Assembly: GCA_017469545.1 (NCBI GenBank)
Contig: JAFUGE010000009.1
Span: 1,567-65,566, forward strand
DNA length: 64,000 nt
Reading direction: 5' to 3'
Origin: Clostridia bacterium
Lineage (GTDB): Bacteria; Bacillota; Clostridia; TANB77; UBA1234
The number at the start of each line of letters is the position of its first letter. The stretch's first letter is position 1. The notes under the pieces were generated by a model that was not told where the DNA came from, ran no database searches, and worked only from the letters and a program-made list of their open reading frames with translations. Shown here piece after piece: positions 52,273 to 55,703 of this stretch. The position numbers were made by a program, and so were the translations under genes.

Positions 52273-54594
52273 ATGACGGAAGCTGAGATAGACGAAATCG
52301 TAGATGGTGCATTACTAAAATTGAATGATGACGAGGAATTAAATAGGGCGGAGATAGCAGCAATTCAATATAGAATCACAGAAATAATGGAGAATGTCAG
52401 TGAGTATGATTTAGACGATAGCGATTTATTTAGCCTAGTAAAATTGATTGTTGCAACAAAAGATGCTTCATTTATTGCTAAAACGATTGTAGATAAAGAG
52501 CTAGGCTTTGATTCGGTACATAAGCTGCTTTTAATTGAGGGACTTCGAAGGACAGAGCTTCCTGAGCAGGAGTATTATATGCAGGCGTATGAATATATGC
52601 AAAGTGCATCTGTGGGGCTTGAGTCAAGAGATAAGTATTTGCTTCTTAAGAATATGAAGAGCTTGGAATATGCAAAGGAACGATATAATTACAATGACGG
52701 ACTAGATTTTACAGAGTATGAAAGAATCATTTATCATGCTACCACAAGTCCGGAAATTGGCTTAGCAGATAAGGAAAAGGTAGAGTTAATTAAAGAAGAA
52801 GCAGGGGATTATAGATTTATTGCCTATTGCACTAATTCAATACCTCTTCCTTCTCATGACAAATGTGAATTAATTAAAGATTTAAAAACAAGTGATGGCA
52901 TGACACCGGAGTTGTATCTTGCTTATTTGAGTGCTATCATACTTCCGGATTATGAGAAAGTGGGAATTGAGTCAAAGGATTTCATTGAGCTTGTGAAAGA
53001 TGCACGCAAATTTGGTACTAAAGACGAGCAACAAAGTGACATTCCAAATCCAGAGTATACAAGATTAGTTTATCAAGTTTTGACGGATAATAAACTAACG
53101 TTAAGCGGCAATGAAAAGACACAATTAATTTGTAGTGCGAATGATGCAGAATTTTCTAAGAGTATTTTGCTGGGTAAGACGCCGATTCAAGTGCCACAAG
53201 ATAGCATTGCTAAAATTGTTACTGACACAAAAGATAAAGAATTTATTCATGAAATTTATCTCGGAAACTTTCCTACCATAAAGCTTTCTGAACATGAAAT
53301 GGCTTCAGTCATTGCTAGCACTAAAGATAAAGAATATATCGAAAGCGTACTAAACGGAAGTCAGATAAATACGCACGGCTATCGTGCTAAGCCGGCATTA
53401 CTTAACATCATATTGAGAGAAGAGGCTTCGGAAATTCCATATGAAGAGTGGGAGAGGTATTATGACGAAGTTTTTCAGAAAGTAGTAATAGAAGGCAAAT
53501 ATGGATTTTCGGAGATTCAGCAAACGGAATTGATAGAGACGACAAAATATTATTGCCCTGAACATGAGCGTTATGCACTTCAAAATTTTAAAGACGAATT
53601 TGCGTGTGTGGCGTTAGCGAGATATAGTGACGATAAACAATTGGTAAGAGAATACTTAGATGCGCATCCCCAAATGGATGTAGAAAATCGAAGAGTATTA
53701 ATTAAGGCGCTAGACAACGAGGAAGAAATGAAAGAATTTGATAGCCATGTTTATCGAATTGGGGATGTTTCGGAATTAAGTGCAGAAGAATTGGAAAAAA
53801 TGCCGGATATTGTGGCAGTAAAAATTGAAAACGAAAATACACGTGCCTATCAGCAAGCATTATATGCGAAGCAAGACTATATTGCTATTCGAAGAGAGAT
53901 GGACAAAACGCTTGAGGGGGTTGAGGCTGCCGAAAAAGGAAATCCAGAGAGTGAATTAAAGACATTCTTGGCAGTTTACCAGCGTTTAGCGGAAAAAATA
54001 TCGTATGACCATGAAGCGATTACCCCAGAAGGAAGAGAAAATAGTCTTTTACAAAGAAATTGTCGAAATTTAAAAGGAGGCATTATTGATAATCAATGCG
54101 TTTGTGCAGGGTATGCAGAGATTTTGAGAAATGCTTTGGCGTTAAAAGGAATAGAATGCAAGTATATTCAGGGCACTAGCGAAGAAGCTGGTGGCGGTGG
54201 CCACGCGTGGAATCAAGTGAAGATAGGAAACAATTGGTTTAATGTGGATTTAACTTGGGACAGAAGAGCAATTGCAGAAACGAAAACAGTTGGGCCAGAA
54301 GTGCTAAAGACGGATGCTGAATTTGAGGACCATAAAGAATTTAGCCTTTATCGCTCGGACGAGGAAAAATGTGATGTTAGTATTAATGCGGTTATGATTA
54401 ATAGGGCGAAAAATCAAAAAGCGGAACAAGAGCAGCATGCTGGACTGCAAGAAAGTGTAGAGAATATTGGCATTCGAAAAGAAATATTGCCGAGTGAAAT
54501 TACGCGTGGTGCTGCGCAAATTCGTAGAATAGAACAAGAATTACCAAGGAAAGAAAAAGAACAGATTTTGAAAGACGATCATTTCGAGAGATAG
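52273..54594 (+). CDS. Cassette copy 1, gene A: helical-repeat protein with C-terminal transglutaminase-like (papain-fold Cys-His-Asp) domain
   Basis: RBS AAGAGGTGA. Repeats 'ATKDASFIAK', 'DTKDKEFIHEI', 'STKDKEYIESV'. Core 'CVCAGYA' (Cys 54103-54105), 'GHAWNQV' (His 54202-54204), 'NVDLTWD' (Asp 54247-54249). No signal peptide. Confidence 0.75.
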   Translation: MTEAEIDEIVDGALLKLNDDEELNRAEIAAIQYRITEIMENVSEYDLDDSDLFSLVKLIVATKDASFIAKTIVDKELGFDSVHKLLLIEGLRRTELPEQEYYMQAYEYMQSASVGLESRDKYLLLKNMKSLEYAKERYNYNDGLDFTEYERIIYHATTSPEIGLADKEKVELIKEEAGDYRFIAYCTNSIPLPSHDKCELIKDLKTSDGMTPELYLAYLSAIILPDYEKVGIESKDFIELVKDARKFGTKDEQQSDIPNPEYTRLVYQVLTDNKLTLSGNEKTQLICSANDAEFSKSILLGKTPIQVPQDSIAKIVTDTKDKEFIHEIYLGNFPTIKLSEHEMASVIASTKDKEYIESVLNGSQINTHGYRAKPALLNIILREEASEIPYEEWERYYDEVFQKVVIEGKYGFSEIQQTELIETTKYYCPEHERYALQNFKDEFACVALARYSDDKQLVREYLDAHPQMDVENRRVLIKALDNEEEMKEFDSHVYRIGDVSELSAEELEKMPDIVAVKIENENTRAYQQALYAKQDYIAIRREMDKTLEGVEAAEKGNPESELKTFLAVYQRLAEKISYDHEAITPEGRENSLLQRNCRNLKGGIIDNQCVCAGYAEILRNALALKGIECKYIQGTSEEAGGGGHAWNQVKIGNNWFNVDLTWDRRAIAETKTVGPEVLKTDAEFEDHKEFSLYRSDEEKCDVSINAVMINRAKNQKAEQEQHAGLQESVENIGIRKEILPSEITRGAAQIRRIEQELPRKEKEQILKDDHFER

Positions 54595-54615
54595 TTACAG
54601 AAAGGAATTTTAAGA

Positions 54616-55248
54616 ATGAATGAAAAATTGTTGAGTAAAGATTTTCAGAATGATTTAGAGAGAATTACTGGAAAAAGAATAGAGGAAATATGTGAGGAAG
54701 ACTTGAACAAAATTGAGCGAATGAAATTAATTTTGAAAAATTTTGATGGCACGAATAAGGATTATCATTTGCATGATTTGTCGATTCTAAAAAATTTGCG
54801 ATCCCTTACTTTGAGCCATTTTCCACTCACAAAAGAAGAATTGGTAAGCTTAAATCGATTGCCTCATTTATCCTTTCTTCACTTTGACTTTTGCGAATTT
54901 AAAGGGGAAGAGTTGCTTCTCGATTCTTCTGTCGCTCATGTGATTTTTGATGGCTGTCATATGCTAAGTATGAATATGTTACATAGTGTTAGTGCGGAGC
55001 ATATACAAATAATTGGCTCTGAAAGGGAGAAAAGAGAAATCGATATATTAGATATGGGATGTTTAGAGAATTTGAAAGAGCTATCACTTAACAATTTTAC
55101 GATAAACAATATGAATGAAATCTTGAAAGTGGCACCAAACATCAAATCACTGAACTTGGACGGCTCGCTTGTGAAGGATATTTCGAAACTTGATTTGCCA
55201 GGGGTAGAGGTAAGTAGTAAAGCAAGATATATAGAAGTAAACGCATAG
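54616..55248 (+). CDS. Cassette copy 1, gene B: leucine-rich-repeat-like protein
   Basis: 21 nt after gene A. 'LKNLRSLTLSHFPL', 'LPHLSFLHFDFCEF', 'LENLKELSLNNFTINNM', 'PNIKSLNLDGSLV' with LxxLxLxx(N/C)-type periodicity. Confidence 0.6.
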   Translation: MNEKLLSKDFQNDLERITGKRIEEICEEDLNKIERMKLILKNFDGTNKDYHLHDLSILKNLRSLTLSHFPLTKEELVSLNRLPHLSFLHFDFCEFKGEELLLDSSVAHVIFDGCHMLSMNMLHSVSAEHIQIIGSEREKREIDILDMGCLENLKELSLNNFTINNMNEILKVAPNIKSLNLDGSLVKDISKLDLPGVEVSSKARYIEVNA

Positions 55249-55265
55249 TATAAGGAGAAGGGACT

Positions 55266-55703
55266 ATGACTACAGAAGAAAAAAGAGTGAATAGGGAATT
55301 GTTAGTCATTTTAAATCAATTTCATTTAACGGATAAAATTCCGAGTGAATTATTGCAAAATTTGCAAAATAATCAGGATGAAAGTTGGCCGTTCGTTTAT
55401 GAGAAAAATTTAAAGTTAGAAGAGCAAAAAATCAAACGTCAAACGGCGATTTTGTTCTCAGATATTTACATCATGTATATTTGCAAAGACGAGGCAGAAA
55501 GAGCACGCTTGAAGCAAATTTATATTGATAATGAAGAGAAGAGAAAGCGAAAAAATGACTTTGCATTTTTGCAAAAAGAAGCGGCAGTTCACGACGAGGG
55601 TAAAGAAGAACTTACTAATCTTCCTGCTGTGCAAGAAAATAAAGATTCTATTTGGACTAAAATTAAGAAATTGATCAAGAAACTTTTGGTTCATAATAGG
55701 TAG
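55266..55703 (+). CDS. Cassette copy 1, gene C: small charged helical protein, no recognised domain
   Basis: 17 nt after gene B; homologous to 62648..63067. Confidence 0.55.
   Translation: MTTEEKRVNRELLVILNQFHLTDKIPSELLQNLQNNQDESWPFVYEKNLKLEEQKIKRQTAILFSDIYIMYICKDEAERARLKQIYIDNEEKRKRKNDFAFLQKEAAVHDEGKEELTNLPAVQENKDSIWTKIKKLIKKLLVHNR

Follow-up and report, generated by a model that had tools for sequence, protein, structure and literature searches.

A transglutaminase-fold enzyme, a leucine-rich repeat protein and a small protein of an undescribed family: a recurrent three-gene cassette of Clostridia and candidate conflict module

The toxin domains named in the polymorphic toxin systems of bacteria include Tox-transglutaminase, and the immunity classes named there include Imm-LRR, a class of leucine-rich repeat (LRR) proteins (PMC3482391). 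A second precedent is found in Legionella, where the LRR metaeffector LegL1 arches over the Cys-His-Asp site of RavJ, the product of the adjacent gene, and blocks it sterically (PDB 4XA9; PMC5199130). The DNA considered here is a stretch of 64,000 nucleotides (nt) from a Clostridia bacterium (GenBank assembly GCA_017469545.1, contig JAFUGE010000009.1, positions 1,567 to 65,566 of the forward strand), referred to as the window. It carries two copies of a cassette in which a gene for an apparent enzyme of the transglutaminase (TGase)/papain superfamily (gene A) is followed by an LRR gene (gene B) and by a gene for a small protein (gene C). The logic already known, that of a toxin-type enzyme and an LRR inhibitor, covers A and B, and the novelty lies mainly in the family of C. 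An earlier note on this DNA, made from its letters alone, had stated that the combination was not recognised from any described system. That is fair for C; for A and B, Tox-TGase and Imm-LRR had been described.

The interpretation favoured here, to which we give a probability of about 0.5, is that A-B-C is a toxin-type conflict module; whether it acts inside its producer or is delivered elsewhere is left open. In this scheme A would be a toxin-type Cys-His-Asp enzyme of the TGase/papain fold, and B would bind A and hold its active site blocked, as an immunity protein or inhibitor. C would be adaptor-like, with a variable N-terminal domain (N-domain) that recognises the enzyme it is paired with, perhaps by way of the charged tail at the C-terminus of that enzyme, and a conserved cationic amphipathic helix that docks the complex on the membrane or on a common machine. 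The enzyme might then act within the producer, in the style of a toxin-antitoxin or abortive-infection system, or go to other cells.

The enzyme, its LRR neighbour and the recurrence of the trio

Gene A (52273-54594, + strand, 773 amino acids, aa) was taken from the open reading frame (ORF) scan with an ATG at 52273, which is preceded by a strong ribosome-binding site, AAGAGGTGAG. The protein comprises a helical N-terminal region, a TGase/papain-fold core at about residues 556-705, and a charged C-terminal tail of about 70 aa. Pfam Transglut_core (PF01841) matches residues 556-659 with 32.1 bits, and matches the second copy, A', with 34.1 bits, against a cutoff of 23. NCBIfam returned nothing beyond a partial match to a family of TGase-related lipoproteins from Mycoplasma, while the sole sequence relative in the PDB, found with the core profile (E 2.2e-9), is 9crn, a "transglutaminase-like domain-containing protein". 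Alignment places the predicted catalytic cysteine, within C-x-C-A-G-Y, at Cys611 (codon 54103-54105, + strand), and the other members of the predicted triad at His644 (codon 54202-54204) and Asp659 (codon 54247-54249). The earlier note had proposed just such a triad, with the cysteine at this codon, and the claim is well supported: the Cys, His and Asp columns are kept in 41 of 42 non-identical TGase cores drawn from all fetched loci, the exceptions being one alignment break and one fragment. Both features tested, profile and triad, are present, and on this evidence of sequence A belongs to the TGase/papain superfamily. Its activity could be that of a thiol peptidase, of a transglutaminase or of a deamidase.

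When a profile of the A and A' cores was run against 185,579 species-representative genomes, 46 loci were found, at identities of 37% or less and nearly all in metagenome-assembled genomes of gut Clostridia and Lachnospiraceae. The core profile found no relatives in 2.9 million viral contigs, and full-length A, in a word-indexed homologue search, matched only itself. In the N-terminal region the earlier note had described a long array of repeats of about 35 aa. The motif itself, [ST]KD[KA][ES][FY]I, does occur, with four copies in A (residues 62, 289, 319 and 350) and about four in A', there on the opposite side of the core, but the array was overstated: three copies are in tandem, at a spacing of about 31 aa, and a self-BLAST of A gave no internal repeat.

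Gene B (54616-55248, + strand, 210 aa) begins 21 nt beyond A. The Pfam LRR_4 model scores 25.5 bits on it, just under the cutoff of 27, and only 12 bits on its paralogue B'. An AlphaFold2 (AF2) model built with 24 homologues (predicted local distance difference test, pLDDT, 89.6; predicted template modelling score, pTM, 0.87) has alternating strand and helix units. Nine PDB entries matched this model in Foldseek at E<=0.001, the leading ones all LRR proteins (internalins, repebodies, SKP2), with internalin B the best (E 8.5e-5). The suggestion that B is LRR-like is thereby borne out, and the protein is modelled as a true curved solenoid. LegL1, in the RavJ-LegL1 complex (4xa9_G), is also among the fold matches of the model (TMq 0.55, rank 41). 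The B family is narrow, with 93 clusters at 90% identity that are nearly all the 195-aa protein of one abundant human-gut lineage, and B relatives adjoin a TGase gene in every case (loci L006, L047-52 and L097-99; L numbers denote fetched loci).

A search of 5.8 billion sequences placed one distant relative of B (P0360, E 3.8e-7) in a canonical type VIIb secretion system (T7SSb) locus, L099. The order of genes there is EssC (FtsK_SpoIIIE), YukD, two WXG100 proteins, a 127-aa helical protein, DUF4176, a 1235-aa LXG-like toxin and the LRR gene, the start of which overlaps the stop of the toxin gene. The toxin starts with an LXG-like helical region, contains a glycine-rich membrane segment and ends in a TGase core that is 40% identical to A across C611...D659. 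The slot directly after an LXG toxin of a type VII secretion system (T7SS) serves as the immunity position in T7SSb systems. The B-family profile aligns with the LRR of L099 at an hhalign probability of 97% (E 6.8e-11, 182 columns). The LRRs that are fused to certain A-like proteins were likewise considered as B paralogues, for a Rosetta-stone argument; this was rejected at an hhalign probability of 2%, which leaves the argument with fold-level support alone. Since the LRR of L099 matches the B profile and the fused LRRs do not, the similarity is specific to B and is not that of LRRs in general. The B-type LRR in an immunity slot, the Tox-TGase and Imm-LRR literature and the LegL1-RavJ pair together lead us to read A and B as an enzyme and its dedicated inhibitor or immunity protein, and we infer that B inhibits A.

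The A-B-C order is found twice, both times in the window. The second copy, a diverged paralogous set as the earlier note had proposed, consists of A' (59814-61943, + strand, 709 aa, or more likely 653 aa from a start at 59982 behind AAGGAG), B' (61988-62635, + strand, 215 aa), which lies 44 nt beyond A', and C' (62648-63067, + strand, 139 aa), a paralogue of C and a member of the same family. In the 709-aa numbering the TGase core of A' is in the middle of the protein (C331, H372, D387), with KD-x-x-F repeats and a charged tail C-terminal to it. Between A and A' the identity is 33% and is confined to the core (E 2e-30); it is 37% between B and B' (E 6e-38) and 37% between C and C' (E 1e-26). 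Judged by this divergence, the paralogues of the two copies are old.

In other genomes of gut Clostridia the trio recurs in other orders. C-B-A is found in a human-gut lineage (L006, L047-49) and in a sister lineage (L050-52), with more than 280 data blocks in all; here C has 144-145 aa, B 195 aa, and the A-like protein 680-712 aa with an LRR fused to the TGase. An A-x-C-B order is found in L097 and L098, where a frameshifted or split A-like gene is followed by C and B, the set (3678-6588) interrupting the ribosomal-protein superoperon between secY and adk. Among partial sets, L003 has C between an S8 peptidase gene and a TGase gene, and L005 has C behind a frameshifted LRR-TGase gene. A further candidate, L096, is laid out like the window, but it was rejected as an independent occurrence and not counted: over 12.1 kb its nucleotide identity to the window is 99.8%, and it comes from the same strain. 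The neighbours of the trio vary from lineage to lineage (purBC, mnmA/cysS, fab genes, tsaB/rimI, secY/adk). Because they differ in every lineage, the three genes are best seen as moving as a unit with free order, in keeping with the view of the earlier note that selection seems to act on the trio as a unit.

These changing neighbours, together with the frameshifted copies, also tell against a housekeeping pathway, which the earlier note had named among the findings that could overturn its proposal. A related possibility is that the cassette serves the cell biology of particular lineages and has no conflict role, for example in cross-linking of the spore coat or envelope by the TGase, with B as an LRR scaffold and C as a membrane-binding helper. 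Bacterial transglutaminases do cross-link spore coats, sporulation genes adjoin some of the loci (spoIVA in L006 and L049, yabP/yqfD in L056-61), and the amphipathic helix of C recalls membrane-targeting sequences. Against this stand the shifting genomic position and the frameshifts just mentioned, the confinement of the B family almost entirely to one lineage (93 clusters), duplicated copies that have diverged to 33-37% within one genome, the presence of one copy in a low-GC mobile-element remnant, and partners of C that include a toxSAS-like (toxic small alarmone synthetase) RelA/SpoT protein and an adenosine deaminase on a mobilisable element. A purely cellular role is in our judgement very improbable.

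The C family and its partners

Gene C (55266-55703, + strand, 145 aa) begins 17 nt beyond B and belongs to a large unannotated family. Its product has a folded helical N-domain (residues 1-95), a disordered linker, a conserved LP motif and, at residues 130-144, a C-terminal helix that is cationic and amphipathic; in the AF2 model the N-terminal 90 residues have pLDDT above 88. A profile built on 6 and then on 64 relatives found 191 clusters in the word-indexed database and, by exhaustive search, 4,872 representatives (50% identity) at E<=1e-3, with 3,222 at E<=1e-10. Among the best 150 relatives listed, nearly all are stand-alone proteins of about 140-165 aa. A scan of 64 members against Pfam, NCBIfam, PHROGs and PADLOC gave no match beyond scattered chance level. 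C is a member of no described family and a new element of the cassette. The profile found the family absent from 2.9 million viral contigs, and one member had no match in plasmid and phage collections, so these searches lend no support to a phage or plasmid origin.

The two ends of the protein evolve differently. The N-domain is diverging, with a mean pairwise identity of 31% against 40% in the C-terminal part, and the latter is almost invariant within large subgroups (YNPDNIFKNKK...NLPVEIKKExFFKKLIxFIKxLFNK). The last 20 or so residues have a hydrophobic moment of 0.73, against 0.45 when shuffled, and a net charge of +4.6 (p 3.5e-12, n=64). A variable cargo side joined to a conserved common end is what an adaptor or chaperone would show; no other inferred step in the interpretation is weaker than this one. 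C is also proposed to bind A.

One member of the family is itself part of a larger protein. In locus L063 (8001-8816), a 271-aa product (P0057) joins a truncated N-terminus of the RhuM family in frame to a complete C-family protein, and is probably a fusion made by deletion.

What the family keeps company with was studied in 39 non-redundant contexts. A gene on the same strand ends within 20 nt upstream of C, often overlapping it, in 26 of the 34 unique contexts that could be assessed, and tight coupling on one side or the other is seen in 33 of the 39. Partner lengths run from 159 to 1,658 aa, and the partners are mutually unrelated. Among the 29 that were scanned there are four TGases, two adenosine deaminases, one RelA/SpoT protein and one S8 peptidase, the rest being without a credible domain; a second S8-C pair was found beyond these 29. 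Several genomes hold at least two pairs of C and partner.

One of these arrangements lies on a mobilisable element (L053-55) with a recombinase, TnpV, MobC and a relaxase. At 5465-10718 of L053, and also in L054, L055 and L082, an 850-aa adenosine deaminase is followed by a C-family gene, an HD_4 hydrolase, a RelA/SpoT synthetase and a second C-family gene. The deaminase has a C-terminal region that resembles LOG/SLOG proteins when the sequence is read by eye, and the set looks like an undescribed, nucleotide-centred conflict cassette. In PADLOC, the deaminases among the partners match the CARF_ADA model and one partner matches the candidate system PDC-M03A. The RelA/SpoT synthetase has a hydrolase of its own and the TGase has B, which argues that C is not the neutraliser. 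The N-domains of C proteins with similar partners are alike, at 70% for two that are linked to deaminases and at 61-83% in the C-B-A lineage, a sampling too thin to separate co-evolution from shared ancestry.

In L056-L059, at about 3300-10750, serine-recombinase elements that carry pairs of partner and C split a polysaccharide deacetylase gene next to yabP/yqfD, a gene that is intact in L060 and L061; these elements resemble the intervening elements that are excised at sporulation. In L056-L062 (e.g. L060, 3986-8447), a C subfamily with a repeat-protein partner is divergent from a group of agr-like quorum-sensing genes (AgrB, an AgrD-like small ORF, and a histidine kinase with a LytTR regulator), and quorum control of the pair is possible.

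A broader proposal would take the C family and the charged tails of its partners as the marks of an undescribed system, widespread in gut Clostridia, in which one adaptor handles polymorphic toxin-like enzymes. The N-domain would be specific for the cargo and the amphipathic helix would be the common docking end, and the system would be a new way to deliver effectors, to sequester them at the membrane or to release them when triggered. A-B-C would be an instance with an LRR inhibitor of its own, and the repertoire would run through TGase, S8 peptidase, adenosine deaminase and toxSAS to dozens of unknown domains. We put this forward tentatively, as a possibility that is somewhat doubtful.

Some of the same evidence could be read as that of a secreted effector, directed at other bacteria or at a host. 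A would be exported through a T7SS or another pathway not encoded nearby, with C as export chaperone and the tail as signal, and B would shield the cells that make A and their kin. In the case of a T7SS LXG-like toxin, this TGase core and a B-type LRR form the toxin-immunity pair, and C is like a chaperone or adaptor in its size, in its tight coupling to cargo and in having a variable cargo side and a conserved end. The several genomes with two or more C-partner pairs fit as well, and T7SS toxins have been described in which the arrangement is reversed and the partners are small helical proteins (PMC10730906). That said, A has no LXG or WXG domain and no signal peptide, secretion genes are absent within 7-10 kb of C in all 39 contexts, and the supposed tail signal has not been established statistically. 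The toxSAS protein with its own hydrolase and the SLOG-like adenosine deaminase look, moreover, like intracellular enzymes. Export of A through an unlinked pathway seems unlikely on this balance.

For the toxin-type module itself, in which direction is left open, several findings weigh on the other side. The T7SS link depends on one locus, L099; no T7SS genes lie near the A or C genes in any other fetched locus. Neither A nor A' has a Pfam, NCBIfam or PHROG domain outside the core, and LXG, signal peptide and trafficking domain are all lacking. The most common lineage has B ahead of A and an LRR fused to A itself, an arrangement that a simple toxin-immunity pair would not usually show. Nothing related to C was found among PDB sequences, or among PDB and BFVD folds with the AF2 model, and no relative thus backs the role of adaptor. 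Most partners of C have no recognisable domain, so that the label "toxin-like" is extrapolated from a few. A shared motif in the partner tails, [IL][ST]xx[DEQ]hGxxT...EQVE...EGEE, was noticed by eye, and an iterated hidden Markov model stayed within one subgroup; it was set aside as a lead only. Dockerin-like Ca-binding repeats, an idea taken from the dockerin/cellulosome literature, were not seen in these tails by eye, the only way in which they were sought.

Genomic setting of the two copies

The layout of the first cassette given in the earlier note (ORF coordinates, gaps of 21 and 17 nt, distance to the tRNA gene and strong terminator) was confirmed throughout by ORF, ARAGORN and terminator scans. 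The tRNA-Arg(ACG) gene (52047-52123, + strand) ends 149 nt upstream of A and has a terminator-like hairpin of its own at 52127-52153. Between them lies a promoter-like site (52188-52218, + strand), recognised by eye, with TTGCTA, a 19-nt spacer and a putative extended -10 element, TGaTATAAT (52210-52218); the consensus promoter scan was limited to spacers of 16-18 nt and did not list it. A strong bidirectional hairpin of 16 pairs (55771-55807) closes both the cassette and a convergent gene, D. No tRNA-derived, att-like direct repeat occurs downstream of tRNA-Arg as far as position 64000, and integration at this gene is accordingly not shown. Two other expectations of the earlier note also held. 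None of the six proteins of the two copies has a signal peptide or transmembrane segment, the highest 19-residue Kyte-Doolittle mean being 1.29, and PADLOC-DB 2.0 gave no match for A, B, A', B' or C' and, for C, only a weak and implausible one (Specificity_II, E 0.0057).

Gene D (55810-56445, - strand, 211 aa) has no Pfam or PHROG match. Its sole homologue in the fetched loci (L004, 8821-9510; phmmer E 2.3e-50) is directly upstream of a TGase-core gene (9623-10837) that has neither B nor C. D may be a fourth associate, or an alternative partner or inhibitor of the TGase, a suggestion drawn from two occurrences.

From 52 kb onward the GC content of the window falls, to reach 0.26-0.31 beyond 58 kb. 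Between the two copies (56773-59708, + strand) are decayed mobile-element genes, among them a phage-type gene (phrog_15286) and a Phage_30_3-like gene. These are joined by a truncated murA fragment (58173-58559, + strand), a 128-aa N-terminal piece of the MurA/EPSP-synthase family that looks like the scar of an insertion or recombination in the low-GC island. A DnaD-like replication initiator (58692-59198, + strand) follows, and then a gene for a MobC/NikA relaxosome accessory protein (59403-59708, + strand), with A' next and no relaxase behind it. The phage-type gene, the murA fragment, the initiator and the MobC/NikA gene without a relaxase place copy 2 within a decayed mobile element.

A conflict role for the cassette, as the earlier note had guessed, is supported by this setting, that is, by the low-GC island with MobC, replication initiator and phage-type genes, by the insertion between secY and adk, and by the frameshifted copies in L005 and L097. 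The note had gone further and suggested the logic of nucleotide-binding LRR (NLR) immune proteins, with an LRR sensor driving a protease effector; this did not survive. There is no Pfam match to NACHT or NB-ARC and no Walker A motif in A, B, C or their paralogues, and the B homologue of L099 occupies an immunity slot.

Anti-phage defence could also take a form in which B holds A inactive and releases or activates it on binding a phage protein, with C as tether or regulator and abortive infection as the outcome. The low-GC island with its decayed mobile-element genes would suit such a system, as would proteins that all appear cytoplasmic. Several partners of C are like defence effectors (the deaminase that matches CARF_ADA, the PDC-M03A match, the toxSAS-like RelA/SpoT protein with its HD hydrolase), LRR-TGase fusions occur among related A-like proteins, and the listed effectors of NLR-related proteins in bacteria include TGase-like peptidases (bioRxiv 10.1101/2022.07.19.500537). 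Missing, however, are the NTPase core of the STAND class (signal transduction ATPases with numerous domains), a Walker A motif, and any credible PADLOC match for A, B or C. Nor did the loci examined lie in recognisable defence islands, a siting the earlier note had raised; the neighbours are housekeeping genes. For B homologues a single context is informative, that of the immunity slot following a secreted T7SS toxin. The absence of the C family from viral contigs and from phage and plasmid collections carries little weight either way. We regard a defence function as improbable.

The chromosome that flanks the island is ordinary Clostridial core, with leuS, a surface protein, a histidine kinase with an HD-type response regulator, HtrA, and what is, from its translation read by eye, a CCA-adding-type enzyme. 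The surface protein (38105-41635, + strand, 1176 aa) has six Big_2 and three SLH domains, and Cys-rich stretches of CxxC type near both ends of its Ig array. A nonribosomal peptide synthetase (NRPS)-like C-A-R protein (44840-49162, - strand), with Condensation, AMP-binding and terminal reductase domains and no carrier domain in the scan, is divergent from a 4'-phosphopantetheinyl transferase (PPTase) gene (49253-49840, + strand), and the two form a small, single-module orphan biosynthetic locus. The tRNA-Arg genes CCT (51879-51955, - strand) and ACG are divergent and 91 nt apart, each with promoter-like hexamers and a terminator of its own.

Comparison with described systems

The nearest described relative of A and B is the Tox-TGase/Imm-LRR pair (PMC3482391), as it appears in L099: the core is the same, at 40% identity, a B-related LRR gene comes right after it, and, as in A, the core is borne by proteins that differ in their non-catalytic flanks. 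A of the window lacks an LXG domain, a signal peptide and any other trafficking domain, and there are no secretion genes in its vicinity. LXG, WXG100 and EssC were sought in the window and none was found, so A does not qualify as a T7SSb LXG substrate. A trafficking domain, looked for and absent from the sequence, likewise keeps A out of full membership of the polymorphic-toxin class. The window cassette differs further in its third gene, C, which L099 lacks, and in a gene order that is permuted between lineages. If the reading is right, a T7SS toxin domain would be tied to free-standing chromosomal cassettes.

RavJ and LegL1 are like A and B in being the products of adjacent genes, a papain/TGase-fold Cys-His-Asp enzyme and a small LRR protein, though binding of B to A is here a prediction. 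There is no detectable sequence relationship between the two pairs. Both RavJ and LegL1 enter eukaryotic host cells by injection through a type IV system, and they have no third component like C. Should B indeed inhibit A, the pair would be a second, independent case, after LegL1-RavJ, of an LRR protein that serves as the dedicated inhibitor of a TGase-fold enzyme.

The bacterial NLR-related and STAND proteins share with the cassette an LRR, as a repeat of the sensor type, and a TGase-like enzyme, as an effector of the peptidase type. The cassette lacks their defining central NTPase (NACHT/NB-ARC), and its parts are separate small genes.

For C the closest parallel is with the hyperpromiscuous domains of toxin-antitoxin networks (Panacea/PanA, NetFlax; PMC8832971, PMC10440598), in which a small family likewise forms tight two-gene pairs with many enzymes, including RelA/SpoT proteins of toxSAS type. 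C differs in having no similarity to DUF4065 or any other Pfam family, in lying usually downstream of its partner, and in the conserved amphipathic helix at its C-terminus. It also co-occurs with separate candidate neutralisers (B, or the HD hydrolase) and need not be an antitoxin. If the reading proposed here is correct, C would open a family of thousands of unannotated small proteins that flag toxin-like enzymes in abundant, mostly uncultured gut Clostridia. Most of the enzymes so flagged have no recognisable domain, and C would be a practical handle on new effector and toxin domains and on their control.

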